DNA of 64,000 nucleotides from an uncultured Candidatus Saccharibacteria bacterium (GTDB taxonomy: Bacteria; Patescibacteriota; Minisyncoccia; Portnoybacterales; UBA2143). The position numbers and the translations under genes were made by a program. Numbering within the stretch: the first letter of the stretch is position 1; the number at the start of each line of letters is the position of its first letter. The notes below the pieces were generated by a model that worked only from the letters and a program-made list of their open reading frames with translations, was not told where the DNA came from and did no database searches. The stretch is taken from positions 17-64,016 of the forward strand of contig CAZJPW010000002.1 of NCBI GenBank assembly GCA_964548405.1, given 5' to 3'. Shown here in pieces: positions 12,543 through 64,000 of this stretch.

Positions 12543-12773
12543 ATGTGTTTAGCAACTCCATCAAAAGTTATTAAAATAGAAAAAGATGAAGCTATTGTCC
12601 AATCAGGTCATCACCAGCATCGGGTTAATTTAGATTTAATCAAAGATGTTAAAATTGGAGATTATCTGCTTATCCACAACGAAATGGCTTTGAATAAAAT
12701 GCCTCAAACTGAAGCCAAGAAAATCCTTAAAATGATTAATGACCATTCTACGACTAATGTACTGAACAAGTAA
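12543..12773 (+). CDS. hypC: Hydrogenase maturation factor HypC/HybG
   Basis: Starts MCLATPSKV (the HypC N-terminal Cys signature MC[LI][AG][IV]P). 76 aa. Convergent with the hydrogenase large subunit. Confidence 0.85.
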   Translation: MCLATPSKVIKIEKDEAIVQSGHHQHRVNLDLIKDVKIGDYLLIHNEMALNKMPQTEAKKILKMINDHSTTNVLNK

Positions 12774-29546: not shown

Positions 29547-30461
29547 TTAAAAAGCTAAAATTCCTAAACCTAGAATAATAAATGCAATTGACACAACTTT
29601 TTGTAAAATTGCGCTTTGATTAACCTGCTCTTTAATAATCCGAGGAAACTTCTTAGACAGAAACAAAGCCACCACTAAAAGAAAAATATACTGGACCCCC
29701 TGTAAGGCATTAACTAAAGTAACACTACCTAAAAAAATTGCATAGTTGAGTAAAATGAAAGACAAACCAGACAACCCCTTATTAACCACCGCCAATCCGC
29801 CTGTCCTTAATTTAACCTTACTTGAAGTCTTCATAATAGCCCGGCGGCTAATCGGGAAAATAAATAGAAAGATAGCTCCGACAACTCCGCCCAAACGAAT
29901 CCAAATAAAGCCATTAATAAAAGGTTGATAAGAATAAATATATTTAGTTAAAACATATGATCCAGTAAAAAACAAAGCAGCCACTATAGCCAAAGGCAAT
30001 CTCTTAACCAAAGGTGTTTTAACTAAGCCAGAAACCAGCCTGATCTGTTTTCTAGGCCAGGCCATAATTACTCCACCAAGAACAAGCAAACAAAAAGCAA
30101 TCATCTGATTAAGCGCTAACCGCTCGCCTAAAAAGAAATATGTCAGAATAAAGGTAAAAAGAGGAACTAATCCTCCAATAACCGGAGTAATCCTAGAAAC
30201 TTCGCCTAATTGGACTGATTTATAAAAGAAGAAGATAGCCAGAACAAAAGCATTACCAGCTACAAAACTAACTATCATTTGATCTATTGGTAAAACACTA
30301 AAACCAAAAGGAAACAACAGAATAGCTAAACCGCCAAGAAGACCCACATAAAAAGCATAAGCAGCCGGCTTAAGACGAGTATGTGAAAATAAATACTTGT
30401 CTACTATAAAAACCAGGGCAAAAATAAAATGAGCAATAATTGCAATTAAAAGCCAACTCAT
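29547..30461 (-). CDS. Polytopic membrane protein, DMT/EamA-like transporter
   Basis: About 10 hydrophobic helices with a two-repeat arrangement. Sits between the two glycosidase genes. Confidence 0.55.
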   Translation of the reverse strand: MSWLLIAIIAHFIFALVFIVDKYLFSHTRLKPAAYAFYVGLLGGLAILLFPFGFSVLPIDQMIVSFVAGNAFVLAIFFFYKSVQLGEVSRITPVIGGLVPLFTFILTYFFLGERLALNQMIAFCLLVLGGVIMAWPRKQIRLVSGLVKTPLVKRLPLAIVAALFFTGSYVLTKYIYSYQPFINGFIWIRLGGVVGAIFLFIFPISRRAIMKTSSKVKLRTGGLAVVNKGLSGLSFILLNYAIFLGSVTLVNALQGVQYIFLLVVALFLSKKFPRIIKEQVNQSAILQKVVSIAFIILGLGILAF

Positions 30462-31654
30462 AATCTATTCTCCTTACAAATTTTAGCGTATTCAAAAGCA
30501 CTAGGCCTAATCTTACGCTTAAATGTTTTAAAATCTATTTCAACCAAACCAAACTTAGGCCAATACCCCTTATCCCATTCAAAAAAATCAGTCAAACCCC
30601 AATAAATATATCCTCTAACATCCACTCTTTCCTCTATTGCCTTATGAATCCAAGTTAAATGATCCCTGATAAACTTAATTCTTTTTTCATCATCCCTATC
30701 CGCTATACCGTTTTCTGTAATATAGATAGGTTTGTTGTATTTTTTTAAATCTTTTAAAACATGGTATATGCCTTCTGGATATATTTCCCAACCCATATCA
30801 GTAACAGATTCATTTCTATTCTTCGGCAGCCGATGGTGAAAATAATAATTAAGACCGATAAAATCTTGATACTTCCTAATCTTTCTTAAAAAATGATTAT
30901 TCCAGAAAAAATTAGCCAGAGGGAAACTCTCAAAATAGACATTATGCTTAGCAATTCCCACCTGGCAGCCCAGATCAACTAACTTTAATGACGCATAAGC
31001 CAATTTATGAGCTTTAGCCAAATTATTAATAACCTTTAAATACTTAAAAATCCCTTTTTTCTGAGGAGGCCAAACACCTCTAAAAAACGAATTGAAAGAA
31101 TATATATTAGGTTCATTAATAGTTATCCAAAAATTAACATAATCAAATAAATTCTCGCCTATTATCTTAACATAACGGTCAAAATATTTTGGGAATTCAG
31201 GACAAAGTGAACCGTCTTTTTTAGCCAGCCAATTAGGCAGAGGCCAATGGTATAAAGTAACAAAAGGTTCTAATCCTCTTTTTCTCAAAGCAGCCAAAAC
31301 TTTTCTGTAATGCTCAATTTCCTTTTGATCTATTTTACCTTCCTTAGGTTCAATCCTAGACCACTCAATGGAAAGACGATGGGCATTATGATTCAACTTC
31401 TTAGCAATATCAAAATCCTCTTCAAAACGATGGTAATGATCGCAAGCCCGGCCAGAGATATAGTTCCGGGACTGAGACATTTCTGGAAATTGTTCCTGCT
31501 GCCATTCTTGCCAACGATTCCTAGCCTGACTGGCTAAATCTTGAGCATTACCTTTTTCCCATTCTGACCAATCATTAACATTCCCACCTTCCACTTGATG
31601 GGCTGAAGTACCTGCTCCCCAATAAAATTTTTTTGGAAACCTCATTTCTGACAT
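30458..31654 (-). CDS. Glycoside hydrolase family 1 beta-glucosidase
   Basis: N-terminal GH1 signature FPKKFYWGAGTSAHQVEGG, catalytic NEP (acid/base) and ITENG (nucleophile). Confidence 0.85.
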   Translation of the reverse strand: MSEMRFPKKFYWGAGTSAHQVEGGNVNDWSEWEKGNAQDLASQARNRWQEWQQEQFPEMSQSRNYISGRACDHYHRFEEDFDIAKKLNHNAHRLSIEWSRIEPKEGKIDQKEIEHYRKVLAALRKRGLEPFVTLYHWPLPNWLAKKDGSLCPEFPKYFDRYVKIIGENLFDYVNFWITINEPNIYSFNSFFRGVWPPQKKGIFKYLKVINNLAKAHKLAYASLKLVDLGCQVGIAKHNVYFESFPLANFFWNNHFLRKIRKYQDFIGLNYYFHHRLPKNRNESVTDMGWEIYPEGIYHVLKDLKKYNKPIYITENGIADRDDEKRIKFIRDHLTWIHKAIEERVDVRGYIYWGLTDFFEWDKGYWPKFGLVEIDFKTFKRKIRPSAFEYAKICKENRL

Positions 31655-48492: not shown

Positions 48493-50388
48493 CTATATCT
48501 CAATATTTATCCTAATCTTATTCTCTTGTTTTGGCATCTTATTAACCCAGAATGGCCAAAAACTTACCCTGGCTTTCTCGATCTCTGATTGGTTAGCTAA
48601 ATACCTCCTTACTTCCACTTCATCCTGACCAGCCAAATTTTCCTTTAAAGATTGTATATCTATTTTAAAAGCAACATTCTCTTCAATAGTTAAAGAAAAA
48701 GAAGCTTCGCCTTTTTCCCAGTCTATTACTGGAGTCTGCCAACTAATCTTTTGTGTTTCATTAATCGGAGTCTTATCATCAGAAATTTTTGAAATTAGAT
48801 TTAAATCAACTAAATTTTTCAGATCTTCTTCTTTGAAAAGCAAAGCCTTCATAGTTACCTTTATATCCATATTAAATTTATCCGCCTGATCACCTTCTTT
48901 AACACTGATTTCTATCTTAACTACTTCTTCTTTTAATCCATCTTCGACTATCCTTAAATCAGTAGGAATCTGATCTTCCAAGGCCTGTTTGACTTCCTGC
49001 TTCAACTCATCAATTAAAGCAGTTTCTGCCTTTTCTAAATCATCAGACAAAACAACCTTAGCTTTACCAACAAAGCCGCCACTCATTGAATCATTAGTCT
49101 TGCCGTAAAAACCGGCAAACTTAGGTGAACCCTTAAATCCGGGTATAGTGAAATTGTCTGGATCAATATTGTAATCTTCGCCCGGCTGATCAGCCACTAT
49201 CTCTATTTCTAAACTACTAGCAATAATCTTACCTTCAGATATTTTAGCTCCCGGCACAGTCACACTCTGAGGTATCCTAAATATCTTACCATTAGAAGAT
49301 TCAAAGCGCGTTCTGGCTAACAAAGTCTGTTTTTCAGAACTATATTCATTATAAATGGTAATCTTACCCCGGGCTCTTTGATTAATATCTTCTTCACCAG
49401 TAGTATTAAATTCTCTACTCTTTGTCTTAGTTACCTCAACTTCTTGAAGAGGAATTTCATTTAAGGATTCATCGATCTGAGAAACATCTTCAGAACCAAT
49501 CACCGATAGATCAAAGTTAACTACCTCAGTTTTGGGCGTAAGAGTAACTTCGGCATTAGGCAAAACCAAGTACCCCACCAAACCTGCCATAACTATGGCT
49601 ACAACGATAAAAATAGTGAATAGCTTAGACCATTTTAGACTACCCTTCTTTTCTGTTTCCGTAAAAACCCTTGTTTCTGGTATTTTTTCCACTTGGACTG
49701 GCCGAAGAGGCTGAACTGGAACTGGTTTTGGCTGCTGATCCGGAATACTCTTAACTGGAGATCGACGGAAAAATCCAGGTTTTTCCTCGCCTGGACGCGT
49801 AACTATGTCAGCCATTCTTTTTTGATTTTGAGTTGATGTTTTCTTAACTTCAGACACTATCCCAGAAACAGGCTTTTTCCTCCAAGAAGTCAACACAGCA
49901 AAAGGACTTTTAGTTTTGGCAGCCTTTTTTTCCACTAATTCATCAACTAAAAGATCTATCATATTTTCCTTGGATTGAACTGGCTCTATCTTTTCTTCAG
50001 AATTTTCATCTACTTCTACAGGATCCTTTACTGGTTCGTCTGGTTGAAGCTCCGGTGAAGCGGATTGGTTTTCTTCTATCTCTTCCTGTTCTTCAACTAT
50101 TTCATCTTGGACTGTATCCTGGACTAATTCCACTGGCAAATCTCTTTCTTTTCGAACGGCAAAGCCTATTCTCTCAGCCATTTCAGCGCCCAAGTCATCT
50201 GAAACAATAAGGGTAACTGCCTTATTCAAAATATCTGCTTCGCGCTTAAGCAGCTTTAGATTAATCGAACTTTGCCAAATCTGAGCACCGGAAGGCACCA
50301 CCAAATTAATTTCTTCATCTTCCGATTGAATAAGACGATCAACTACAGAAATAATTTCCTCATTTGGTTCTAAGTATATATTTTTCAT
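48493..50388 (-). CDS. Hypothetical bitopic membrane protein (631 aa) downstream of the ftsA-like gene
   Basis: Acidic N-terminal cytoplasmic region, a Pro-rich linker (KPVPVQPLRPVQ), one TM helix (LFTIFIVVAIVMAGLVGYLVL) and a roughly 350-aa extracytoplasmic domain. No recognised motif. Confidence 0.5.
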   Translation of the reverse strand: MKNIYLEPNEEIISVVDRLIQSEDEEINLVVPSGAQIWQSSINLKLLKREADILNKAVTLIVSDDLGAEMAERIGFAVRKERDLPVELVQDTVQDEIVEEQEEIEENQSASPELQPDEPVKDPVEVDENSEEKIEPVQSKENMIDLLVDELVEKKAAKTKSPFAVLTSWRKKPVSGIVSEVKKTSTQNQKRMADIVTRPGEEKPGFFRRSPVKSIPDQQPKPVPVQPLRPVQVEKIPETRVFTETEKKGSLKWSKLFTIFIVVAIVMAGLVGYLVLPNAEVTLTPKTEVVNFDLSVIGSEDVSQIDESLNEIPLQEVEVTKTKSREFNTTGEEDINQRARGKITIYNEYSSEKQTLLARTRFESSNGKIFRIPQSVTVPGAKISEGKIIASSLEIEIVADQPGEDYNIDPDNFTIPGFKGSPKFAGFYGKTNDSMSGGFVGKAKVVLSDDLEKAETALIDELKQEVKQALEDQIPTDLRIVEDGLKEEVVKIEISVKEGDQADKFNMDIKVTMKALLFKEEDLKNLVDLNLISKISDDKTPINETQKISWQTPVIDWEKGEASFSLTIEENVAFKIDIQSLKENLAGQDEVEVRRYLANQSEIEKARVSFWPFWVNKMPKQENKIRINIEI

Positions 50389-51700: not shown

Positions 51701-53548
51701 TTATTCCAATACTGCTTTGATTCTTCTAACTCCAGCCGAGCTGGATTGCTCCTTGGTAATCTTAAAATGACCCAATTGGCCAGTTCGTTCAACATGAGGA
51801 CCAGCACAAATCTCTTTTGAAAAATCTTCTATAGTATATATTTTTACTTTTTCTCCATACTTTGATTCAAAAGTTCCCATAGCGCCTTGTTCTTTAGCTT
51901 GATCTAAAGTCATTTCATCACAAGAAACAGTTAAATCTTTTTCAATTGCATCATTTACTAATTTTTCTACTTCTTGCTTTTGTTCGTCTGTTAGTTTTTC
52001 TGAATGAGAAAAATCAAATCTCAATCTCTGAGCTGTAATATTACTGCCTCTTTGAATGACTTGATCGCCTAAAACTTTTCTTAAAGCAGCCAGTAATAAA
52101 TGAGCGGCCGTATGAAGTTTTTTAGTTTCCTCTCCAGTATCAGCCAATCCACTCTTGAATTTGCCTTGAGTAGCAGTTCTAGAAAGATCCTGGTGTTTTT
52201 TGAGTTCTTCTTGAAATCCTTCTTCATCAACTTTTATTCCATTTTCTTCGGCTAATTCTTTAGTCATCTCAATGGGAAAACCATAGGTCTGGTATAAATC
52301 AAAGGCTTCCTTGCCGCTAATTATAGGACCAAATACTGGAGTTTTTGCACCTGGAGAACTTTGTGGTATTATTAACTTATTTTGGATAATTCTTTCCCCT
52401 TTTTTCAAGGTCTTCTTAAACTTAGCTTCTTCCTGATCAAAATTATCCAAGACAAAATCCCGATTCCTTTCTAATTCATTATATACATCTTTAAAATCAT
52501 TAATTACAACTTGAGCTACTTGTTTAGTCCATAAATCATCTTTGATTTCTAATTGCCGCCCGTATCTAATAGCCCTCCTAATTAATCTGCGAACCACATA
52601 CCCCTGATCAAGATTAGAAGGAGCTATTCCCTTATCATCACTCATAATAAAAGTAGCAGCCTTAATATGGTCAGCGATAATTCGAAAAACCTTTCTAGTA
52701 TCAACCCAACATTGTTTTCCTTCCTCTATATATTCACTATCAAATTTATCTCCATACTCTAAGTTAGACAATTCTTCAATTTTTTTAATAATATTTATAA
52801 ATAATTCTGTTCTATAATCATCATATGTTTTATTCATAACAGCCAAAACTCTTTCTAAACCAACTCCCGTATCAACATTCTTCTGACTTAACGGTTCAAA
52901 AGTTCCATCTGTCTTCTTATTATACTCCATAAAAACGTTATTCCAGATTTCCATCCAACGATCATCTTCTGGATCAAACTTCTCTGGAGCTGGAGTATCA
53001 TCCTTAGTCCAATAAAATATTTCGGTATCTGGACCACAAGGTCCTGTTTGTCCGGCTGGTCCCCACCAATTCTCTACTTTAGGCAATGGGACAATTTTCT
53101 TATCTGGGACGCCAACACTCTTCCAAACATCAATTGATTCCTGATCTAAAGGTGCATCTTGATCCCCCTCAAAAACAGAAACAGCAACTCTCTGCTTATC
53201 TAAACCAAGCCATTCTGAAGAGGTTAAAAATTCCCAGCTCCATTCGATTACTTGTTTTTTAAAGTAATCGCCTAAAGACCAATTCCCTAATTGTTCAAAA
53301 AAAGTATGATGAGTCGTATCACCCACTTCATTAATATCTACAGTCCGAATACATTTCTGAATATCGACTAGACGATTTCCTTGAGGATGTTTTTCACCCA
53401 TTAAATACGGCACCAAGGGATGCATGCCAGCAGAAATAAACAAAGTGGTTGGATCATTTTCAGGAATCAAAGAAGCGCTGGGAATAACAGCGTGGTCTTT
53501 AGACTTAAAAAAATCTAAATATTTTTGTCGTAGTTCTTTTGATGTCAT
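51701..53548 (-). CDS. alaS: Alanyl-tRNA synthetase, short form (catalytic plus editing domains, no C-Ala domain)
   Basis: Class II AlaRS N-terminal blocks (FISAGMHP, FFEQLGNWSLGDYFK) and editing-domain HxxxH (HTAAHLL) plus a C-terminal Cys/His site. 615 aa. Confidence 0.85.
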   Translation of the reverse strand: MTSKELRQKYLDFFKSKDHAVIPSASLIPENDPTTLFISAGMHPLVPYLMGEKHPQGNRLVDIQKCIRTVDINEVGDTTHHTFFEQLGNWSLGDYFKKQVIEWSWEFLTSSEWLGLDKQRVAVSVFEGDQDAPLDQESIDVWKSVGVPDKKIVPLPKVENWWGPAGQTGPCGPDTEIFYWTKDDTPAPEKFDPEDDRWMEIWNNVFMEYNKKTDGTFEPLSQKNVDTGVGLERVLAVMNKTYDDYRTELFINIIKKIEELSNLEYGDKFDSEYIEEGKQCWVDTRKVFRIIADHIKAATFIMSDDKGIAPSNLDQGYVVRRLIRRAIRYGRQLEIKDDLWTKQVAQVVINDFKDVYNELERNRDFVLDNFDQEEAKFKKTLKKGERIIQNKLIIPQSSPGAKTPVFGPIISGKEAFDLYQTYGFPIEMTKELAEENGIKVDEEGFQEELKKHQDLSRTATQGKFKSGLADTGEETKKLHTAAHLLLAALRKVLGDQVIQRGSNITAQRLRFDFSHSEKLTDEQKQEVEKLVNDAIEKDLTVSCDEMTLDQAKEQGAMGTFESKYGEKVKIYTIEDFSKEICAGPHVERTGQLGHFKITKEQSSSAGVRRIKAVLE

Positions 53549-53549
53549 A

Positions 53550-55256
53550 TTACTCTACTTCCTTGTTATAGCACTTCTGACAGTATACTATTTCTTTTCG
53601 CTCTGGGGAATAGGTTGTTTGGAATTTAACATTACATCCTTTGTTCATACACTGCCTTTGCCACAACCTCAAAGGATTTCTAAATCTAGACCTTTCTTTT
53701 CTTCTGCAATACATACAAGTTCTAGGCAAGGGTAAATTATGTTTTTTGTAAAAATCTAATTCTCTGGACACAATTTGAAAAACACCTGAACCGTCACAAT
53801 CACTCCCATTCTGACATCTAATTACTTGTTTTAAAATACTTTTATCTACATCATTAATATGATCTGGTAGTTTTTCTGATTTAATTGTTGCTTTGTATTC
53901 TGGCTTAGGCCGATCATACCAAGTATATCCTTTAGCTAAAGCCTGTTTTTTAGTCAAAGGAAAATATACCTGAGCTGGCGTATCATGATAACTAAAGCGG
54001 GACATTTCAAGAGGGAAAAAATCTCCATACTGATAAACTCTTTTCTTTTTATCAATGTATGGCATATCGTTCATTTGCTGCTTAATCTTCTTAATCATTT
54101 CTTTGTATTCTTGTTTGGAATATTGTTTATTAAAAATACAGTATTCTTTATGACGCAAACCAATACAGCCAAATATGTCATGGCAGTTATAGCATTCTAT
54201 GGAATAGGCAGTATCATAGCAATTATCTAAATTGCCTGAACAAACAAGATTACGACAACTAGTAGTAAAATCCGCTTCGTAAAGCAATTCTGATTTTGTT
54301 CCTCCAGCATTAACATCATAACTATCTTTAATATTCAACCCAGACATATGGATAAATTTACAATCTTCTGCTCCTTGATAAACACCAAAACATCTATAGC
54401 AGTTTTTACTTCCGTTAACATAGTCTCCAATAATACCAACTGATTTAATTATCTTAGCCCAAGGTTTGGGAAATTTTAAATTAAATCTCTCAAACTTCCT
54501 TATTAACTTCTGTACTGTCTCATAGCTTCCCAAATCATATTTCTTGATTTCCTTTAAATATTCTGCTTTGGAATATGCTTCGTTAAAGATGTGATACTTC
54601 TTGTTTCCCAAATTAACGCAGCCGAAACAGCTTTGGCAGTTACGGCAATCGTACAAAAAAGACGAATCCATACAATTATTACAAAAAGCGCTGAAAAACA
54701 AACGATAGGAATTATCACAATCAAAACACTCATAGATCCGTTCTCCTCCAATAATCATAGTTGAATCCATGGAATCTTTAGTCATGCCAGGACCATGAAG
54801 ATACAAACAGCTTTCTGAAGCAATTCCACCATGAGACATATAGCAGTTTTTGCTTTGAATTAAGTTAGTACAATACTCACAATCAACCGAATTAATCAAT
54901 CTTAAGTTATGCCAAGGAACTTGCTTCATTAACCGATTAAACTGTTCAAAGAATGTTTTCTTAAAATCATACTCCTTTCCATAATCCATTGGATCCCACT
55001 TATCTGACCACCAGATCTTTTGATCATAAACCTTGTATGATGTTTTAGGGTTATAGCCGCTGATCAATTCCTTGCCAGTAAAATCACATTTATCTTTGTA
55101 TAATCTATCAATACTCCTAACAGCCAATCTTCTAATTAAACGACACTCCGGACACCAGGTTGGTTCTGGTACATCTATCTTTTTATAAAATTCAAAATCT
55201 TCTGGTTCTATCACAAACTTAGATTTACAATTTTGGCAAGTTTCAGTTTTTTTCAT
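53550..55256 (-). CDS. Cysteine-rich bookend zinc-ribbon paralogue 1 (568 aa)
   Basis: N-terminal CQNCKSKFVIEPEDFEFYKKIDVPEPTWCPECR and a homologous C-terminal module. Internal CxxCxxCxxC and duplicated LFGC..KKYxIFNKxYSKxEY units. The member of the tandem family nearest alaS. Confidence 0.6.
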   Translation of the reverse strand: MKKTETCQNCKSKFVIEPEDFEFYKKIDVPEPTWCPECRLIRRLAVRSIDRLYKDKCDFTGKELISGYNPKTSYKVYDQKIWWSDKWDPMDYGKEYDFKKTFFEQFNRLMKQVPWHNLRLINSVDCEYCTNLIQSKNCYMSHGGIASESCLYLHGPGMTKDSMDSTMIIGGERIYECFDCDNSYRLFFSAFCNNCMDSSFLYDCRNCQSCFGCVNLGNKKYHIFNEAYSKAEYLKEIKKYDLGSYETVQKLIRKFERFNLKFPKPWAKIIKSVGIIGDYVNGSKNCYRCFGVYQGAEDCKFIHMSGLNIKDSYDVNAGGTKSELLYEADFTTSCRNLVCSGNLDNCYDTAYSIECYNCHDIFGCIGLRHKEYCIFNKQYSKQEYKEMIKKIKQQMNDMPYIDKKKRVYQYGDFFPLEMSRFSYHDTPAQVYFPLTKKQALAKGYTWYDRPKPEYKATIKSEKLPDHINDVDKSILKQVIRCQNGSDCDGSGVFQIVSRELDFYKKHNLPLPRTCMYCRRKERSRFRNPLRLWQRQCMNKGCNVKFQTTYSPERKEIVYCQKCYNKEVE

Positions 55257-56602
55257 TTGTTTTTAATAAAGAATTTTGAAATAATACTTCCAATTATTAA
55301 CCCAGCTAAAGTAGAAACCAAAGCATAACCAACAACCAATGGAGTAAATGAACCAGTTACTGAAACTACAATAAAAACGATTAGACCTAAGGCATATCCT
55401 AGAGTCAAAGCAAACCCAGAAATTCTTCTAAAAAGCCAAGTAGTAATTATTCCAACTCCTAAAACAATACCAATTGTTGCCCATAAATACGTTGAGACAA
55501 TGACACTTTTTAATAAATAACTGGCAATGGCAGCTAAAACAATAATCACGGCCATAGTAATCCTAAAATATTTAACGGTCTGCTCTTTACTAACCTTCTT
55601 ATTCCTTAAAACAAAATCCTGCAGAAAAACTGAGCTGCTTGTAAAAATATATGTATCGGTTGATGACATTACTGCCGAGAACATTAAAACTCCACCAATG
55701 CCTAAAAAGTAAACTGGTAATAGATGAATTAATCCTTTGATAAAAGCTATTTCAGGATCTGCCTCAGGCATATGTGTTTTAATGACTAAACCAATCAGAA
55801 TCATAATAAAAATCATCAAAGGATAAATTGTCATTGACATTAAGAATCCCCTCTTTAAAGTCTTCTTATTCTTTGTCGCATATATTCTCTGAAACATGGC
55901 TGGCTGGAAAAACGGAGTCAAAACCCCAAGAATGATAAACATAGGAATATTCCCTAATCCAGATGACCAAGGATCTAAATATTCCCTATCAACTTTCCAA
56001 ATACTAGTCAAACTAAACAACATTATTAACAACAAAACTAGAATAACAATATATTGAAAAAAATCTGTTTTTACAACTGCTTTAAAACCTCCTGCAATCA
56101 GATAAATAAAAACAACAGAAGTAATTAAAACAAGAGAAACATTAAAACTAAATCCCGTTATTTCAAACAAAGCTTTTGAACCAGCTGTTAATTGGACAAT
56201 TATTGAAAATGTTAATTTGAGCAAGGCTAATGTAGCAGCTAAATACCCCGCTGTCTTGCCATAATTTTTAAAAACATAGTCAGCCAAGGTATAGTATTGA
56301 TTTTTATCTGCTTCATCTTTCAAACGATTTTTAGCAAAAAGATAAAAAACCCAAAAACCAGCCACTGCTCCTAATAAATACCAAATAGCACCCATATCAT
56401 ACAAATATACAAAAGTAACCAAAACAAGCAAAAAACCACCATCCGCCTTACTAGCAGCAATAGTGGCAAAAGTAGACAAGGAACTAACTTTCCTATCACC
56501 CAAAAGAAAACCTTCAGCTGTTTGTTTACGTGAAGCCCAAAGGCCAATAACTATTGAAATAGCGAAGTAGGCTGAGATTAAAACTATTCCTAATGTTCCC
56601 AT
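55253..56602 (-). CDS. Polytopic (about 13-14 TM) transporter, sodium:solute-symporter-like
   Basis: Hydrophobicity pattern and loose SSF-like N-terminal region (GFLLGDRKVSSLSTFATIAASKADGG). Embedded between paralogues 1 and 2 with 4-nt overlaps. Confidence 0.5.
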   Translation of the reverse strand: MGTLGIVLISAYFAISIVIGLWASRKQTAEGFLLGDRKVSSLSTFATIAASKADGGFLLVLVTFVYLYDMGAIWYLLGAVAGFWVFYLFAKNRLKDEADKNQYYTLADYVFKNYGKTAGYLAATLALLKLTFSIIVQLTAGSKALFEITGFSFNVSLVLITSVVFIYLIAGGFKAVVKTDFFQYIVILVLLLIMLFSLTSIWKVDREYLDPWSSGLGNIPMFIILGVLTPFFQPAMFQRIYATKNKKTLKRGFLMSMTIYPLMIFIMILIGLVIKTHMPEADPEIAFIKGLIHLLPVYFLGIGGVLMFSAVMSSTDTYIFTSSSVFLQDFVLRNKKVSKEQTVKYFRITMAVIIVLAAIASYLLKSVIVSTYLWATIGIVLGVGIITTWLFRRISGFALTLGYALGLIVFIVVSVTGSFTPLVVGYALVSTLAGLIIGSIISKFFIKNK

Positions 56603-56606
56603 AAAT

Positions 56607-58340
56607 TTATTCTACTTCTTTATTATAACATTTTTCACAATAAACTACTTCTTTCCTATCTAGGGAATAGGTTGTTTGGAATTTGGTATTGCAACCTTTT
56701 TTCATACATTGACGTTCCCAAAGTTTAATCGTACTTCTTTGTTGAATCCTTTCCTGATGTCTACATTCTGGACACAGACGAGGCAAAGCTAAACCATATT
56801 TTTGATAAAACTTAAGCTCGTTAGGAATAATTTTAAAAACACCCGAACCAGCACAATCAGAATTCTGGCATTCAATTGTTTCTTTTAAAATACTTACATC
56901 TATATCTTTGATATAATCTGATAAATCTTTAGATTTAATAGTTGTCTCGTAATTTGACTTTTCTTCTCTATACCAATTATATCCTTGTTTTGAAGCCTGT
57001 TCCTTATTTAAAGGAAAATATCTTTGAACTATAGATTCGTTGTATCCAAAACGAGAAAGTTCAATCGGAAAATATTCTCCATACTTATATTCTCTTCCCT
57101 TTTTATCAAGATACGGCATTTGATCCATCTGCTTCTTAATCTTTCCCACTATTTCAAAATACTCCTCTTTTGAGTATTGCTTATTTAAAATACAATATTT
57201 CTTTTTTCTCAAAGAAACACAGCCAAACAAATCTGAAGAACCATGACAGCCTTCTGAATAAAATACATCTCTGCTTGTCCAAACAGCATTGTCAAAAAAC
57301 ATTCGATCGCATCTTTCAACAACACAAACTGATTCATAGGCTCGAGTCACAAAATACCCTGTATCATAGACATCATAAGAATCTTTAAGTCCCCAGCCAG
57401 TAATTAATACATATTTAGAATCTTCTGTCCCTTTATCTCCATTGAAGCAATATTGACAGTTTTTGGAATTAGCCATATCATCGCCAACCACATTAACTGC
57501 TTTTTCGATTCTGGCAAATTTGCGTGGAAATTTAATATGGAAATCCTTAAATCTTTTTTCAACATCCAAAATCGTCTTATGACTACCTAAATCATACTTT
57601 TCCATTTCCTTTTCATATTCTGTCTTGGAATATGCTTTGTTGAATATGTGATACTTTTTGTTTCTCAAATTAACACAACCAAAACAATCGTGGCAATTAC
57701 GACAATTATACAAAAAAGCTGAATTATGACATTCTAGGCAATCCCAACTAAAAAAGAGTTTATAGCATTTTGAACAACCAACACAAAAATAGCAAAGTTC
57801 ATCATTGACTGCCTTATACATATCCATACAATCCTTGTTTTCTCCAGACCAAGTTGTATAGGAACAATTTTCTGACATTCCGCCCAAGAATACTAAATAG
57901 CAGTCTTTGGTCTGAGTCATATCATGACAATAATCGCTATTCTCCGAATTAGTATTTAAAAGATTAACTACTGGCGTATCTTTCTGTAATTGATAAAACT
58001 GCTCAAAAAATGATTTGTTAGAATCATATTCTCTTCCATATTCCATAGGGTCCCAATTATCTGACCACCAGCATTTATTACAATAAACCTTAAATGGCTT
58101 ATCCGGAGAGTAAATCGTGACCATAGATTTACTACATAGATCACATTTTCTTTTGTATAGCTTTCTTTCATTCCAAGAAGCTAATCTTCGCTGCATGCGG
58201 CATTGAGGACAAAAGGTAGGCTCCGGCACATCTATCTTTTTATAGAATTTCTTATCTTCTGATTCAATATTAAATTCAATTTTACAGTTTTGACAGATTT
58301 TTGTTTTAAAATCCATTATTCTATCTCCTTTTGATAACAC
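56607..58340 (-). CDS. Cysteine-rich bookend zinc-ribbon paralogue 2 (577 aa)
   Basis: Same architecture and conserved termini as paralogue 1. The central region diverges. Confidence 0.6.
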   Translation of the reverse strand: MLSKGDRIMDFKTKICQNCKIEFNIESEDKKFYKKIDVPEPTFCPQCRMQRRLASWNERKLYKRKCDLCSKSMVTIYSPDKPFKVYCNKCWWSDNWDPMEYGREYDSNKSFFEQFYQLQKDTPVVNLLNTNSENSDYCHDMTQTKDCYLVFLGGMSENCSYTTWSGENKDCMDMYKAVNDELCYFCVGCSKCYKLFFSWDCLECHNSAFLYNCRNCHDCFGCVNLRNKKYHIFNKAYSKTEYEKEMEKYDLGSHKTILDVEKRFKDFHIKFPRKFARIEKAVNVVGDDMANSKNCQYCFNGDKGTEDSKYVLITGWGLKDSYDVYDTGYFVTRAYESVCVVERCDRMFFDNAVWTSRDVFYSEGCHGSSDLFGCVSLRKKKYCILNKQYSKEEYFEIVGKIKKQMDQMPYLDKKGREYKYGEYFPIELSRFGYNESIVQRYFPLNKEQASKQGYNWYREEKSNYETTIKSKDLSDYIKDIDVSILKETIECQNSDCAGSGVFKIIPNELKFYQKYGLALPRLCPECRHQERIQQRSTIKLWERQCMKKGCNTKFQTTYSLDRKEVVYCEKCYNKEVE

Positions 58341-60034
58341 TTCTCACAATATACAATTTCTTTTCTATCTGGGGAATAAGTTGTTTGGAATTTAGTATTA
58401 CAGCCTTTTTTCATACATTGTCTGTTGTATAATTTCATTGGATTTCTCAATTTAATTCTATCCTGATGCCTGCATTCATGACATAATCTTGGAATAGGAA
58501 TGCCTTGTTTTTTATAAAACTTATACTCTCCTGGAATTAATCTGAATACTTTAGTCCCCTGACAATCTTTATTTTCACATTCTACTACCTCTTTTAATAT
58601 TTTATCATCTACATCCTTAATATCATCTGGAATGTCTTGAGCTTTAATTGTCGCCTTATACTCTGCCTCCGACTTACCATACCAATTAAATCCTTGTTCC
58701 TTAGCTTTATCTTCAGAAAGAGGGAAATATTCATTAGCTATGGTTTCATTATATCCAAAAGGACTTAATTCAGCTGGGAAAAACTCTCCGTATTTATATA
58801 CCCTCCCTTTTTTATCAACATATGGCATCTCATCCATATGTTTTTTAATTTTAGGAACTAATTCTTCATATTCTTTTTTAGTATATTGCTTGTTTAAAAT
58901 ACAATATTTTTTATGACGCAATCCAACACAACCAAAAAGATGATGAGAATTATTTGAACCAATAGTATATTCCATATCATACAAATTAATCATATGATCT
59001 TTAACACTCTTAGGTATATTCAGCCAACAAAATTTAGTTTGATACCCTCCACTTTCTTCAAGTTCATAACAAAGTTCGCCACCAGCAATAGCTATGTCAT
59101 AACATTCTTTACTAGGCATAAAAAGAATCATTTGACAGTAAGAACAATCTTCTAAATCTCTATTAATGAACGAATTTTGAACATTTTTACAATTGTTTAA
59201 GTAGTCTCCAGATACATCAATGCTTTTTCGACTATGCATAAACTTATTTGGAAATTTCATTTGGAATTCTTTAGCTTTTTTTTCTAAAGCTAAAATACTT
59301 TTATATGAACCAAGATTAAATTCTTTTAATTTTTCTTCATATTCTTTCTTAGAATAGGCTTTATTAAATATATGGTATTTTTTATGCCTTAAATTAACAC
59401 AGCCAAAACAATTCTGGCAATTAACTAAATTCTTAGAAAACCAAACATTAGAACATTCGTGACAATCAGTTGAAAAAAATACTTGATAACATTTAGCGCA
59501 ATCAAATAGGTTATATGAAAGTTCCACATCATTTACTTTAACCAAATCGTAGCTATCTAAAGACCCCGTAGTATCAATCGCATAAGCCACATTTTCAGAC
59601 ATGCCCGTATTAAAAACTAAATAACAGTTTTTAATATGACCTGTATTATTAGTAAAAGGACTATTAACCGAATCTAATTCAAATTTATGAGGAAATCCGA
59701 CTTGATGCAATAATTCTTCAATTTGTTTAAGAAGTGGCTTATTAAAATCATATTCCTTTCCATATTTCATAGCATCCATTTTATCAGACCACCAATATTT
59801 TCCATCATAAACTTTAAAAGGAAACTTAGGTGAAATACAGGCAAAAACCTCCTTATCAAGCCCTTCTACTTTTCTCTTGTAAAGAATCCGGCCACTTCTA
59901 AAAGCCAGTCGCCTTTGACTACGACAGCCAGGACACCAAGTTGGCTCCGGCGCATCTATCTTATGATAAAAATCACTATCCTCCGGAAAGATAGTGAATT
60001 CTTCATGACAGCTTTGACACTTCTTTTTTTTCAT
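58316..60034 (-). CDS. Cysteine-rich bookend zinc-ribbon paralogue 3 (572 aa)
   Basis: Same architecture. Overlaps paralogue 2 by 25 nt. Confidence 0.6.
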   Translation of the reverse strand: MKKKKCQSCHEEFTIFPEDSDFYHKIDAPEPTWCPGCRSQRRLAFRSGRILYKRKVEGLDKEVFACISPKFPFKVYDGKYWWSDKMDAMKYGKEYDFNKPLLKQIEELLHQVGFPHKFELDSVNSPFTNNTGHIKNCYLVFNTGMSENVAYAIDTTGSLDSYDLVKVNDVELSYNLFDCAKCYQVFFSTDCHECSNVWFSKNLVNCQNCFGCVNLRHKKYHIFNKAYSKKEYEEKLKEFNLGSYKSILALEKKAKEFQMKFPNKFMHSRKSIDVSGDYLNNCKNVQNSFINRDLEDCSYCQMILFMPSKECYDIAIAGGELCYELEESGGYQTKFCWLNIPKSVKDHMINLYDMEYTIGSNNSHHLFGCVGLRHKKYCILNKQYTKKEYEELVPKIKKHMDEMPYVDKKGRVYKYGEFFPAELSPFGYNETIANEYFPLSEDKAKEQGFNWYGKSEAEYKATIKAQDIPDDIKDVDDKILKEVVECENKDCQGTKVFRLIPGEYKFYKKQGIPIPRLCHECRHQDRIKLRNPMKLYNRQCMKKGCNTKFQTTYSPDRKEIVYCEKCYQKEIE

Positions 60035-60039
60035 AAATA

Positions 60040-61458
60040 TTAAACTAATGGTTCAGGATCTTTATCTTCTTCTTTAGATTTTTCAACTTTACCAGTTTTT
60101 TTAACCATTTCCTCTTCTTCTAATTTCTTTTTAACTTCTGCCAAAGGAAGAGCATATTTTTCTCTGCTTTGCTTAATAATTTCATCTTTAAACGATTTAT
60201 GATTAGGTGATAAAACTTTTAAGGTTTCAGCAGAAAAAGGATCAAAAGTTTCTCCATCAATAGTCATTTTAATGTAAAATTCTTGAATACCTAAATTAAT
60301 CATATCTTCAGCTCCAAAAACAGGTGTCATTTCTACAGCCATTCTAGCAGCATCATCTCCGCCAATTCTAAAAGTAACCATTGTTCCAATATTTCCTAAA
60401 ACTGTAGCTAAAACTCTTTCTAATAACTGAGCAATATATTGATGAGCGACAGTAATACATAACCCATATTTCCTTGATTCAGCAAATAGGTTTTCAAAAG
60501 TAGTCGTAACTAAGTTTTGAAACTCATCTACATAAAGATAGAAATCTTCCCTATCTTGTTCAGGCATTGAAGCTCTAGCCATACCAGCTTGATAAAGTTT
60601 AGTAATAAACATAGAGCCAAAGAAACTACTATTCTCTTCACCCAACTTTCCTTTAGAAAGAGAAATTAAAAGAATTTTCTTCTGATTCATAATTTCTTCT
60701 AAATCAATCTTATTTTCCTTCTGTCCAAAAATATTTCTTAACAAAGGATTAGATAGAAACTGACTTAACTTATTAACTAAAGGAATAATAGCTTCAGTAT
60801 CAAACTTTTCTGACCAATCAGCAAATTCAACTGCCCAGAATCTCTTAACCATATCATCTTCAATATAGTCAATTACTTTTTGACGATAATTCCTATCTGT
60901 TAAAATTTGAATCATACCTCTCATAGTTGCCTCTGGGTAATCAAGTAAAGCCAAAGTAGTAAATCTAAAAACATGTTCTAAGCGTGGCGTCCAGTTAGCT
61001 CCAAATTGTTTTTGTAAAACTTCTAATAAGCCTTGGGTAACCTGATGTTTTAAATCAGGGTCAATATTTGATAAAGGATTAAAAGAAATTGGAAAATCTG
61101 TATCCGAAGGATCTATAACAATAACATCATTAATTCTTTCTTTAGGAATAAATTTTAAAACATCTTCGATGAAATCTCCATGAGGATCAATTAAACAAAC
61201 TCCATGGCCATAAGCAATATCTTGACGGATAATTAATTCCATTAATTTACTTTTACCAACTCCACTTTTACCAACCATATACAAGTGCCTTCTGCGATCT
61301 GCTCTTTTCATACCAAAAATGAACTTCTTTTCTTCCAAAGCAGCTTCGTAATTAGTTCTTCCAAAAAAAGAACACTCTTCAGGATTAACTTTGCCGTAAA
61401 CAGGTAATTCTGGAGGAGGAGGCGCATATTTAATTTTACGAATTGTTCCTCTAGCCAT
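60040..61458 (-). CDS. P-loop NTPase of the HerA/FtsK/VirD4-coupling-protein type (DUF87-like)
   Basis: Walker A MVGKSGVGKS, Walker B LYVDEFQN and a downstream VAHQYIAQL motif typical of TraD/VirD4/HerA ATPases. K/E-rich C-terminal tail. Confidence 0.6.
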   Translation of the reverse strand: MARGTIRKIKYAPPPPELPVYGKVNPEECSFFGRTNYEAALEEKKFIFGMKRADRRRHLYMVGKSGVGKSKLMELIIRQDIAYGHGVCLIDPHGDFIEDVLKFIPKERINDVIVIDPSDTDFPISFNPLSNIDPDLKHQVTQGLLEVLQKQFGANWTPRLEHVFRFTTLALLDYPEATMRGMIQILTDRNYRQKVIDYIEDDMVKRFWAVEFADWSEKFDTEAIIPLVNKLSQFLSNPLLRNIFGQKENKIDLEEIMNQKKILLISLSKGKLGEENSSFFGSMFITKLYQAGMARASMPEQDREDFYLYVDEFQNLVTTTFENLFAESRKYGLCITVAHQYIAQLLERVLATVLGNIGTMVTFRIGGDDAARMAVEMTPVFGAEDMINLGIQEFYIKMTIDGETFDPFSAETLKVLSPNHKSFKDEIIKQSREKYALPLAEVKKKLEEEEMVKKTGKVEKSKEEDKDPEPLV

Positions 61459-61515
61459 AACAAAAGGGCAGTAATATACTACCTTTATTATATCTAAAAA
61501 CTAAAAATTAATCAA

Positions 61516-63228
61516 TTACCCTATTTCTTTGTTATAGCACTTTTCGCAGTAAATAATTTCCTTTCTCTCTGGAGAATAGGTTGTTTGGAATTTAACATTA
61601 CAACCTTCTTTCATGCATTGACGCTCCCATAATTCAAGAGGATTTCTTTGCTTAATGCGCTCAGTATAACGACAATTAGGACATAATCTAGGTAAAGATA
61701 AGTCATTCTTTTTTAGAAAATCATATTCTTGAGGAATAATCCGATATACGCCCGAACCAATACAATGATCATTAGCGCATTTTATTACTTCCTTTAAAAT
61801 TGATTTATCAATACTATCTACATCATCCGGTAAATCTAAAGCATTAATAGTAGGGCGATACTCTGATTTTAAATTTTTATACCAATTATATCCCTTCTCT
61901 TCAATTTGTTTTTTTGTTAATGGAAAATATTCACCGGCTATAGTCTTGTTATAACTAAAAACAGAAAATTCTATTGGAAAGAATTCTCCATATTTATAAA
62001 TTCTTCCTTTTTTATCTTTATAAGGCATATCATTCATATGCTGTTTAATTTTTGGAATTAATTCCTCATATTCCTTCTTGGTATATTGTTTGTTTAAAAT
62101 ACAATGCTTTTTATGCTTTAATCCAATACAACCAAAAAGATTGGATGAACTAAAACAACTATCTGAATATTCTATATTGTAGACATTTTCTAAAATATTT
62201 ATCGAAAATTTAATTTTACTAAGATTAATCCCGGCCGTAACACTTTCGTAAATCAAATTCGCTTTGTCTCCTCCATCAAAAATATCATAGCTATCTTTTA
62301 ATTTCTTACCACCAGCCCAAATATACTTACAGTTTTCCGCGCCGCCCTCTAAAAGATAAAAGGAATAATGACAATTTTTGGAATCTTTAATATCATTACC
62401 AGAAACATTAATTGAATTGTATATACGTGCGTATCTCCGCGGAAAGCCTATCTTAAATTCTTCGAATTTACTTTTTACCTTTTCAAAATTAATATAACTA
62501 TTAAGCCCGTATTTCTCTAACTCTTTTTGATATTCTTTTTTAGAATAGGGCTTATTAAAAATATGATATTTTTTGTGTCTTAAGTTAACACAGCCAAAAC
62601 AATTCTGGCAATTCTTGCAGTCATACAAAAAAGCAGAATCAATGCAATAATCGGAATGCTGACTAAAATAGACATTATAATTTCTATCGCAAAAAATATT
62701 TTCGTAGCATTTTTCACTCTTAATCAGCCAAAAATTATCAAAACAATTTTTAGAATCCCCAACTACTGAATAAGCACAATTTTCAGAATTATTGCCGGTG
62801 CATAAATAACAGTCCTTACAATTGTACGCTCCGGCACAATAATCACAGTTAACCGAACTTTTATTGTAATTATGAGGCCTTGGTATAGCTAATCTTAATT
62901 CTTTAAATTGTTCAAAAAAAGATTTACTAAAATCATACTCCCTTCCATATTCCATAGGATCCCATTTATCCGACCACCAAATCTTTTGATCATAGACTTT
63001 ATAAGGGCTATCTGGATGATAAATAGAAATTATTTCCTTACCTGAGAAATCACATTTTCTTTTATAAAGTTCTAAAAGATTCCAATGAACCATCCGTCTT
63101 TGCATTCTACAATCAGGACAAAAAGTAGGTTCTGGCACATCTATTTTTTTATAAAACTCAAAATCTTCTGGTTCAATAACGAACTTTGATTTACAATTTT
63201 GACATTGTTTTGTTTTAGATTCATCCAT
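61516..63228 (-). CDS. Cysteine-rich bookend zinc-ribbon paralogue 4 (570 aa)
   Basis: Same architecture as paralogues 1-3. Confidence 0.6.
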   Translation of the reverse strand: MDESKTKQCQNCKSKFVIEPEDFEFYKKIDVPEPTFCPDCRMQRRMVHWNLLELYKRKCDFSGKEIISIYHPDSPYKVYDQKIWWSDKWDPMEYGREYDFSKSFFEQFKELRLAIPRPHNYNKSSVNCDYCAGAYNCKDCYLCTGNNSENCAYSVVGDSKNCFDNFWLIKSEKCYENIFCDRNYNVYFSQHSDYCIDSAFLYDCKNCQNCFGCVNLRHKKYHIFNKPYSKKEYQKELEKYGLNSYINFEKVKSKFEEFKIGFPRRYARIYNSINVSGNDIKDSKNCHYSFYLLEGGAENCKYIWAGGKKLKDSYDIFDGGDKANLIYESVTAGINLSKIKFSINILENVYNIEYSDSCFSSSNLFGCIGLKHKKHCILNKQYTKKEYEELIPKIKQHMNDMPYKDKKGRIYKYGEFFPIEFSVFSYNKTIAGEYFPLTKKQIEEKGYNWYKNLKSEYRPTINALDLPDDVDSIDKSILKEVIKCANDHCIGSGVYRIIPQEYDFLKKNDLSLPRLCPNCRYTERIKQRNPLELWERQCMKEGCNVKFQTTYSPERKEIIYCEKCYNKEIG

Positions 63229-63299
63229 ATATTGACTTGGATTTCTAATATGAAGTATAATATTGATAGTACTAAATTACAATGAGAGGGGGATATATC

Positions 63300-63458
63300 A
63301 TGGCACCGGAAAAAATACCTTACGAACTTCCAGCAATTGCTTTCACACTGGAAGACCTTCCATCTCAGACTGCTGCCTGGGGAGGTGGATCAATTTTTCT
63401 ACCTGAATCTGGCGGAGTCTCTCGACCCAAACTCAAAGACAAAACCATCGAAAAATAA
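63300..63458 (+). CDS. Candidate 52-aa micro-protein (MAPEKIPYELPAIAFTLEDLPSQTAAWGGGSIFLPESGGVSRPKLKDKTIEK), GC-rich, opposite strand
   Basis: Hand-translated. RBS GAGGGGG about 7 nt upstream of the ATG and an intrinsic terminator 20 nt downstream. Local GC about 47% against about 33%. Absent from the track because it is under 60 aa. Confidence 0.35.
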   Translation: MAPEKIPYELPAIAFTLEDLPSQTAAWGGGSIFLPESGGVSRPKLKDKTIEK

Positions 63459-63478
63459 TTCTCGATGAACTGTCGCTA

Positions 63479-63521
63479 CCGCTCTTGTGGATACTGAATT
63501 CGCACGAGCGGTATTTTTATT
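63479..63521 (+). terminator. Intrinsic terminator after the micro-ORF (CCGCTCTTGTG...CACGAGCGG hairpin plus TATTTTTATT)
   Basis: A stem of about 9 bp with one mismatch, read directly, followed by a T-tract. Confidence 0.5.
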
Positions 63522-63525
63522 CTCT

Positions 63526-64000
63526 TTATTCTACTTCTTTTTGATAACATTTTTCGCAATATATAATTTCTTTCCTATCTGGAGCATAGCTTGTTTGAAA
63601 TTTAACATCACAACCCTTTTTCATACATTGTCTTTCCCATAACTTTATTGGGTTTCTTTTACTTAATCTTTCTTTATATCGACAATCTGGACAAATTCTT
63701 GACAAAGGCAAATTCATTTTTTTGTAAAACCGATACTCTGACTCAATTATTCTAAAAACTCCAGAACTCTGACAAACACTACCTTCATTACCACACTCTA
63801 TAATCTCTTTCAAAATAGAACTATCTGTATCTTTGATATTATCTGGTAAATTCTCTACTTTAATAGTCGGCTTATGTTCTAATTTAGGACGATCAAGCCA
63901 AGTATATCCCTGTTCTAAAGCCTGCTCCTTTGTTAAAGGAAAGAATTCTTGATTAATAGTTTCGTTGTAGGCAAAAGGACTAAATTCAGCTGGATAAAAC
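63526..64000 (-). CDS. Cysteine-rich bookend zinc-ribbon paralogue 5 (3' part; gene runs off the window edge)
   Basis: The C-terminal module is highly similar to paralogues 1-4 (...CQKEVE). Hand translation shows the frame stays open from 63813 to 64000 (...YFPLTKEQALEQGYTWLDRPKLEHKPTIKVENLPDNIKDTDSSILKE...). The track start at 63813 is only an internal TTG. Confidence 0.6.
   Translation of the reverse strand, partial: FYPAEFSPFAYNETINQEFFPLTKEQALEQGYTWLDRPKLEHKPTIKVENLPDNIKDTDSSILKEIIECGNEGSVCQSSGVFRIIESEYRFYKKMNLPLSRICPDCRYKERLSKRNPIKLWERQCMKKGCDVKFQTSYAPDRKEIIYCEKCYQKEVE

Follow-up and report, generated by a model that had tools for sequence, protein, structure and literature searches.

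The last 12 kb of the 64,000-nucleotide stretch of DNA analyzed here (contig CAZJPW010000002.1, from an uncultured bacterium of the Patescibacteria; hereafter the window) carry an array of paralogous genes for a cysteine-rich family of about 570 amino acids, which we call FAM and whose copies in the window are lettered A to E. Among them lies the gene for a soluble P-loop ATPase, ATPase-500, that is related to the type IV coupling proteins (T4CPs). The best-supported reading is that FAM belongs with such T4CP-like ATPases in one functional module that has been conserved, and the best explanation of its occurrence is that it is chromosomal and vertically inherited in the Patescibacteria (Paceibacteria/Parcubacteria-type genomes). 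By analogy with the gene linkage between T4CPs and their clients, we further propose, with a probability of roughly 45%, that the FAM proteins are clients of orphan T4CP-like ATPases, either as translocated substrates or as cargo adaptors, which would be bound via their Arg-rich treble-clef ends.

The association was traced in both directions, in 80 loci seeded on FAM with one genome per species and in 80 loci from metagenomes seeded on the ATPase; neighboring genes were clustered over 162 loci. In the FAM-seeded set the ATPase lies within 10 kb in 32 of the 80 loci, mostly right beside FAM and with very few exceptions on the same strand, and 52 of the 80 have more than one FAM copy; where the flanks are complete, the ATPase is found in 16 of 33 loci and at least two FAM copies in 23 of 33. 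Seeded on the ATPase, 62 of 80 loci contain FAM, with a same-strand copy within 1 kb in 60 of the 80, or in 28 of the 33 that extend at least 2.5 kb on both sides. The link is asymmetric, in that the ATPase nearly always has an adjoining FAM gene and FAM arrays occur elsewhere too, which is the pattern expected of one machine with many clients. The number of FAM copies per locus varies from 1 to 10, with ten full-length copies surrounding the ATPase in locus L154. The surrounding genes differ as well: alaS and ftsA flank the array here, and secDF-type or dnaJ/cysS contexts are seen elsewhere. A recurrent order is secD-secF-c7-c4-c8-ATPase-500-[CutA1]-FAM x n-[ATPase-700], where c4, c7 and c8 are clusters of neighboring genes and ATPase-700 is a longer paralog of ATPase-500.

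Such neighborhoods could also arise if FAM and the ATPases were together merely through gene order inherited within one class, with no shared function. All loci indeed come from related Patescibacteria, the housekeeping flanks (secDF, dnaJ, cysS and alaS) are syntenic in subsets of them, and for half of the FAM loci no ATPase lies within 10 kb. Nevertheless, the adjacency is kept despite a complete change of context between the window, the secDF-type and the dnaJ-type loci, despite the range in FAM copy number, and despite divergence to 40-48% identity in FAM and 66-72% in the ATPase; it is also true of both ATPase paralogs. We hence regard shared ancestry of gene order as an improbable explanation of the link.

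The earlier note on this DNA had proposed a dedicated system comprising the family, the ATPase and a membrane transporter, to be abandoned if the latter two were never co-located with the family elsewhere. The ATPase half of this proposal holds across divergent Patescibacteria from both search directions. The transporter, a sodium:solute symporter, is essentially not co-located, being near FAM in just 1 of the 80 FAM-seeded and 0 of the 80 ATPase-seeded loci; we reject it as a component of the system, and it looks like a lineage-specific insertion. Adjacency to alaS recurs in 10 of the 162 loci and is local synteny, both alaS and the symporter being bystanders.

Judged by sequence profiles, ATPase-500 is of T4CP ancestry. 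It matches the Pfam profiles TrwB_AAD_bind (PF10412; 43.4 bits against a cut-off of 20.5, 2.8e-11), T4SS-DNA_transf (PF02534; 30.3 against 20.1) and TraG-D_C (PF12696; 26.2 against 22), with DUF87 also above its cut-off, and its translation displays a Walker A motif GKSGVGKS and a Walker B motif within YLYVDEFQN. None of the NCBIfam equivalogs for TraD, TrbC, CedD or HerA reaches its cut-off, the best being SXT_TraD with 54 against 366 bits. Beyond the Patescibacteria the nearest relatives are plasmid T4CPs; ATPase-500 aligns with the C-terminal half of an 812-residue T4CP from a plasmid of the actinobacterium Embleya (31% identity, E 6e-62), whose gene neighbors code for PrgI-family, ATP-binding, replication-relaxation and NlpC/P60 proteins, a cluster resembling that of a type IV secretion system (T4SS). 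Hydropathy reveals no transmembrane segment in ATPase-500 (maximum 19-residue Kyte-Doolittle score 1.28), and no VirB4, T4SS or relaxase gene is found among the recurrent neighbors in the 162 related loci, though a T4SS could still be encoded elsewhere in its genome. As it has the catalytic domain of the T4CPs but neither their membrane anchor nor a T4SS/relaxase context, we class it as T4CP-like rather than as a T4CP. Across the Patescibacteria its orthologs share 66-72% identity, with a mean column identity of 75%. The C-terminus (encoded at 60040-60130) is an acidic tail ending in PEPLV, and an acidic E-P-[LM]-[IV] end following a low-complexity linker of variable length is present in all 21 of the 21 aligned orthologs; this terminal peptide looks like a short docking motif.

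In keeping with the earlier note, FAM matches no named domain. NCBIfam, PADLOC and PDB sequence searches return nothing, and for the copies in the window Pfam offers just the zinc finger zf_Tbcl (PF13451) at the N-terminus, below threshold with 18-19 bits against a cut-off of 24. Over the wider family, zf_Tbcl matches 30 of 71 members at E<=0.01 (best 6.9e-6), in the end modules, and zf_Tbcl_2 (PF23477) matches 3 of the 71. The PHROGs give a weak match to the unannotated phrog_15341; no relatives of FAM are present among the IMG/VR viral contigs, on which ground a phage origin was rejected. The family is a large one, comprising more than 5,257 clusters when grouped at 90% identity and 2,229 representatives at 50% identity (E <= 1e-30); looking up the clusters supplies neither names nor taxonomy. 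Its relatives are all unnamed or 'hypothetical' proteins of metagenome-assembled genomes of the Parcubacteria/Paceibacteria type; one public source names a homolog 'Zn ribbon nucleic-acid-binding protein'. Profile hidden Markov models (HMMs) of each FAM module, run against all open reading frames (ORFs) of 160 loci, detect no protein outside the family, and literature searches by Pfam name and for Cys-rich, zinc-ribbon and TraG proteins in the Candidate Phyla Radiation yielded no description of it.

Across the group FAM proteins share 40-48% identity and 37 invariant columns. Profile-profile comparison (hhalign) uncovers two internal duplications: the N-terminal module (residues 1-115) is related to the C-terminal one (479-568; probability 99%, E 1e-18), and the middle consists of two related units, M1 (116-262) and M2 (263-400; 99.9%, E 5e-34). 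The AlphaFold2 model, computed from 71 sequences, has good overall confidence (mean predicted local distance difference test score, pLDDT, of 81; predicted template modeling score 0.84) and places most of the end modules and of residues 400-520 at a pLDDT of at least 90 (the ends ranging from about 80 to 95), with two central segments near 60. In this model the termini are folded zinc-finger modules, not disordered basic tails; Foldseek finds no match for FAM in the PDB, and the terminal domains correspond to no solved structure. By Cys conservation the likely zinc sites are C7/C10/C35/C38, all four 100% conserved, C481/C487/C514/C517 and C536/C541/C559/C562, the last being a ribbon with the spacing Cx4C-x17-CxxC. 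Each of the two solenoids is closed by a Cys/His cap (207-222 and 355-373), likewise a likely zinc site, and the first is lined by ladders of Cys that repeat every 12 residues and are less conserved. FAM is a new architecture, a double beta-solenoid with Cys ladders that is capped by zinc fingers. In many members, about half of the family (e.g., ...RQCQCAGEKSSNKLYKNTIEHSHKNKPCPNTFQTTY...), the last zinc ribbon is enlarged by a CxC...HxH...C insertion that could provide an additional metal site; the copies in the window are of the short form. Hydropathy reveals neither a signal peptide nor a transmembrane or hydrophobic segment in FAM, so any export would require a non-Sec route.

From motif conservation alone we predict that FAM binds zinc, and two further explanations start from this property. 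In the first, the FAM proteins would be cytoplasmic zinc-finger proteins that bind DNA or RNA and load it onto, or guide it to, a DNA-pumping ATPase of the FtsK/TrwB type, for instance in the uptake, export or segregation of DNA, and no protein would be translocated. T4CPs are by ancestry DNA-dependent translocases, motif conservation suggests at least five zinc sites in FAM, and in each treble clef the second knuckle is followed by invariant basic residues (R39, R42, R43, K54-K56, R518 and R522). The composition is likewise net basic (90-93 Lys and Arg against 71-84 Asp and Glu), and the public label mentioned above points the same way. A 2025 study of T4SSs also suggests that Patescibacteria repurposed conjugation machinery, possibly for DNA acquisition (PMC12102498). 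However, DNA binding hardly explains the need for 2-10 diverged paralogs with variable solenoids, and relaxase, nuclease and competence genes are not recurrent in the clustered neighborhoods. We see nucleic-acid handling as a possible, if unlikely, role for the family.

In the second, FAM proteins would be Cys-rich stores or chaperones of zinc or another metal, with the ladders of the solenoids holding rows of metal ions. A Cys content of 5-6%, the 12-residue periodicity of the ladders in the first solenoid and the CutA1 gene found inside arrays in 29 loci are consistent with this, although the role of CutA1 in metal tolerance is itself uncertain. A related CxxC-x17-CxxC domain binds zinc, as shown experimentally in small proteins of Methanosarcina (PMC12704099). 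Against this, the solenoid cysteines are only 31-77% conserved, compared with 97-100% for those of the zinc fingers, which fits structural zinc better than storage, and the T4CP-like ATPases would be left unexplained. Of all the explanations weighed here we give this one the least credence.

The array is laid out as follows (window coordinates):

51701-53548, minus strand: alaS (ORF listing and translation).
53550-55256, minus strand: FAM-A, 568 amino acids, a zinc-finger/double beta-solenoid paralog that directly abuts alaS (ORF listing and translation).
55253-56602, minus strand: SSF sodium:solute symporter within the array, 449 amino acids (Pfam SSF, 1.4e-28; several hydrophobic segments).
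56607-58316/58340, minus strand: FAM-B, 569 amino acids from the ATG at 58316 or 577 from the GTG at 58340 (family HMM, 871 bits).
58316-60034, minus strand: FAM-C, 572 amino acids, its stop overlapping the FAM-B start (family HMM, 833 bits).
60040-61458, minus strand: ATPase-500, 472 amino acids, a soluble T4CP-like P-loop ATPase of the TrwB/VirD4/HerA clade (Pfam profiles).
61516-63228, minus strand: FAM-D, 570 amino acids (family HMM, 918 bits).
63282-63458, plus strand: ORF of 58 amino acids in the spacer between FAM-D and FAM-E (public assemblies list it as a gene too).
About 63478-63512, in the same spacer: hairpin with a T-run after the 58-residue ORF (sequence reading).
63526-64000, minus strand: FAM-E, the C-terminal 157 codons and stop, cut by the window edge (family HMM, 255 bits).

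The family HMM counts exactly five FAM genes in the window, four complete and one truncated by the edge, with 48-62% identity to FAM-A. Apart from the 58-residue ORF, the last 12 kb are a run of minus-strand genes. The earlier note had described five consecutive minus-strand genes with the fifth truncated; the family, the copies and the truncation stand, but D and E are not contiguous, a spacer of about 300 nucleotides lying between them. The ORF coordinates bear out its description of an array that is interrupted by the symporter and the ATPase and abuts alaS. A 21-nucleotide block that it listed near five positions is found with at most one mismatch at four (53607, 56664, 58373 and 61573; 0.02 expected), the site near 63590 having four mismatches. 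The start of FAM-B is ambiguous: the longest ORF begins at the GTG at 58340, whereas the ATG at 58316 restores the conserved N-terminus and the overlap with the FAM-C stop. The public annotations are split accordingly between 569 and 577 amino acids, and gene call P0042 has 569 (ATG). Over the shared part, public assemblies of this organism do not differ from the window, and every public contig terminates inside the array. They give FAM-E a full length of 568 amino acids (L001/L163) and, upstream of it on the same contig, a sixth FAM copy of 560 amino acids that is cut by the contig end.

The ORF in the spacer (MRGGYIMAPEKIPYELPAIAF...) is convergent with FAM-E, has a promoter-like site (TTGACT-18-TATAAT) at 63232-63261, and has no match beyond contigs of the same organism. 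With this plus-strand ORF, its promoter-like site and the hairpin with its T-run, the spacer probably splits the array, making FAM-E a transcription unit separate from D-ATPase-C-B-SSF-A. Overall, promoter-like sites are at chance level, and terminator-like sites are somewhat above it (12 against a shuffle mean of 5.8, sd 2.7) and mostly within genes. Neither Rfam at gathering thresholds nor a tRNA scan returns a match anywhere in the window, so the spacer is not a known RNA.

As for the remainder of the window, its GC skew is strongly negative from position 1 to 64000 (-0.16 to -0.34) and nearly all ORFs of at least 150 amino acids are on the minus strand, which places the whole stretch on one replichore with co-oriented genes. 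A 402-residue protein (12754-13962, minus strand) has a match to the large subunit of NiFe hydrogenase (1e-39); near it are genes for a GH1 glycosidase (30458-31654) and a histidine kinase with seven transmembrane segments (19555-21183). Together these represent an unusual metabolic content for an apparently small-genome Patescibacterium. Between infA and ftsA, a 631-residue protein (48493-50388, minus strand) has as its sole Pfam match a borderline GlxA beta-barrel domain (26.8 against 27 bits) and otherwise carries no annotation.

The copies of FAM differ most within the solenoids, in two segments (residues 116-200 and 263-355) where codon-level comparison gives 33-36% amino-acid and about 50% nucleotide identity; the end and cap regions show 56-66% and 64-72%, respectively. 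The single variable center described in the earlier note therefore resolves into two segments separated by conserved blocks (58-66% amino-acid identity), its divergence as such being confirmed. The nucleotide-level conservation of the ends that the same note stressed is visible (64-69% against 50% in the solenoids) but weak, as synonymous differences are saturated in all regions (proportion of synonymous differences, pS, 0.63-0.87). It follows from the conservation of amino acids, the genome being AT-rich, and not from gene conversion. Nucleotide comparison for gene-conversion tracts found none that is long, the maximum stretch over which two copies are identical being 29 nucleotides. Moreover, each copy in the window is nearer to one from another genome (57-68% identity) than to any neighbor (51-56%), and none of the 158 paralogs of multi-copy loci has its best match within the same locus, a count that is inflated by a few near-duplicate loci (such as L102/L103 and L118/L119). 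At a threshold of 45% identity the window copies form one subfamily, and arrays elsewhere mix several deep ones. A recombination-driven variable family, gene conversion and antigenic variation, the first of which the earlier note had entertained, are rejected on these grounds. Instead, the sequences point to old, individually maintained paralogs.

Several genes that recur at related loci bear on how the module might be built. ATPase-700, a paralog of about 700 amino acids, is often adjacent too, so that many genomes have two paralogous ATPases per locus. It carries a zf_Tbcl_2/TIGR04272 zinc ribbon (CxxC-x17-CxxC), which aligns in register but weakly with the last ribbon of FAM (hhalign 51%, E 1.5e-4). 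The product of c7 combines sigma-70 region 4 with a HARE-HTH domain, and c4 (L147:45-1436 and 46 other loci) specifies a protein of about 460 amino acids with no Pfam match. The profile of a single phage protein family, phrog_5156, matches c4 at positions 73-285 and the ATPase at 388-821, in its N- and C-terminal halves, which suggests that c4 and the ATPase may be a split version of one longer T4CP. When c4 is compared by pairwise BLAST with the N-terminal half of the T4CP from Embleya, the match is not significant (E 0.15), which leaves the phrog_5156 profile as the basis for a split T4CP; by hydropathy c4 has at most a possible transmembrane segment. Directly upstream of the ATPase, c8 (L117:585-1139 and 35 other loci) encodes a membrane protein of about 185 amino acids, likewise with no Pfam match, whose soluble domain has an R-N-x3-H motif that is HEPN-like and more than 90% conserved. 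Between the ATPase and the FAM genes comes CutA1 (L081:16887-17216 and 28 other loci), annotated for divalent ion tolerance and PII-like.

The motif in c8 brings up an anti-phage or conflict system, in which FAM paralogs would be the sensors, the ATPases the motors and c8 the effector. PADLOC profiles for mad8 (4e-12) and HerA (1e-7) weakly match ATPase-500, and the differences among FAM paralogs fall mostly in exposed solenoid segments. Yet FAM itself lacks both PADLOC matches and viral relatives in IMG/VR, the ATPase is unusually conserved, c8 is outside the window, and the copies are ancient, with saturated synonymous divergence and no sign of rapid turnover. The recurrent neighbors also include no integrase, transposase or restriction-type gene, although no search was aimed at these. 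A defensive role thus appears very improbable.

Returning to the FAM proteins as clients, the module might operate as follows. The ATPase, presumably hexameric like TrwB and elsewhere paired with the longer zinc-ribbon paralog ATPase-700 and the two small upstream proteins c4 and c8, would engage FAM through its duplicated Arg-rich treble-clef end modules. ATP would be spent either to pass FAM on as substrates of a Patescibacterial T4SS or to use FAM as cargo adaptors, and the variable solenoid faces of the paralogs would supply differing specificities. The physical interaction, the docking surfaces, the zinc occupancy and whether FAM crosses a membrane are here inferred.

A number of observations weigh against this proposal. 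The link is one of gene adjacency, gene order may stay conserved in related genomes for no functional reason, and the half of the FAM loci that have no ATPase within 10 kb counts here as well. The ATPase has no transmembrane domain by hydropathy. The folded zinc end modules (pLDDT about 80-95) are unlike the typical disordered C-terminal signals of T4SS substrates, and some 300 conserved residues of FAM go far beyond the needs of a secretion signal. No VirB4, T4SS or relaxase gene is found among the scanned ORFs of the window, a scan that left out many of them, or among the genes called on the contig from which it comes. The window also lacks c4, c8 and ATPase-700, together with c7, secDF and a CutA1 gene in the array; all but the last may be located past the contig break. 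In the sole Patescibacterium with genetics the T4CP homolog was reported to be non-essential for epibiotic growth (PMC12102498). The conservation of FAM (40-48% identity, 37 invariant columns) is also unlike that of fast-evolving effectors. In its strongest form, the proposal would make FAM, with its diversified paralogs, the long-sought client or effector set of a Patescibacterial T4SS. A split, soluble T4CP pair (ATPase-500 and ATPase-700, with c4 and c8) would bind FAM at its two related treble-clef ends and carry it into host cells, to serve there as effectors of an epibiotic lifestyle. This form we consider improbable.

Much of bacterial diversity belongs to the Patescibacteria, and their interaction with hosts is mostly unknown. 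Their orphan coupling ATPases now gain a candidate partner, as the window and 160 related loci show them consistently embedded in arrays of FAM, a family to which these organisms, known for their small genomes, devote up to some 17 kb of a locus. The open question on these ATPases thereby becomes concrete: is FAM bound by the ATPase, is it exported, and does it bind zinc or nucleic acid? In the literature searched, the pairing of FAM with an orphan coupling ATPase is not described.

Among known families, the closest to the ends of FAM are the treble-clef zinc fingers zf_Tbcl, zf_Tbcl_2 and TIGR04272, of which the first two match the end modules in part of the family and of which ATPase-700 has a bona fide copy; however, the Pfam entries are fingers of about 40 residues with no known role, in contrast to the 570-residue architecture of FAM. 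The middle of the FAM model is fold-like to the two-sheet beta-solenoid of the curlin CsgA, in a region where the pLDDT is only about 60. The ladder residues of CsgA are Gln and Asn. FAM differs in having Cys ladders, zinc-finger flanks and no Sec signal, shares 8% identity with it, and is not a member of the curli family. Two FtsK/TrwB-type ATPases supply an analogy for the proposed arrangement. The C-terminal region of Legionella DotL docks small, partly zinc-binding adaptors (DotN, IcmSW and LvgA), and EssC of the type VII secretion system is encoded beside arrays of variable substrates. These serve as a lead; their partners have no known similarity to FAM in sequence or fold.

The classical T4CPs (VirD4, TrwB and TraD) themselves resemble the window ATPase in their Pfam profiles, which it matches above cut-off, and its conserved acidic C-terminal tail resembles that of TraD, which docks TraM. 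It differs from them in having no N-terminal transmembrane domain, in often sharing its locus with a paralogous ATPase that bears a zinc ribbon, as is the case in many genomes, and in having as neighbors a novel zinc-finger/solenoid family rather than DNA-processing proteins, with no relaxase or VirB4 identified nearby in the genes examined. Its position beside putative clients parallels that of T4CP genes, which in conjugative systems often lie beside a relaxase gene, as noted in the T4SS study (PMC12102498). Across 2,918 Patescibacteria genomes that study counted 5,713 VirD4-like T4CP homologs, of which only 148 lie near virB4, and it left their function open as possibly 'exapted for other functions' (PMC12102498); in the passages searched we found no mention of the neighbors of these T4CP genes, of FAM arrays, or of c4, c8 and CutA1. 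Those orphan T4CPs are of the same protein class as the ATPase described here, come from the same organisms and are rarely near virB4, and by our own arithmetic (5,713/2,918) they number about two per genome, which fits a pair of ATPases of about 500 and about 700 amino acids.

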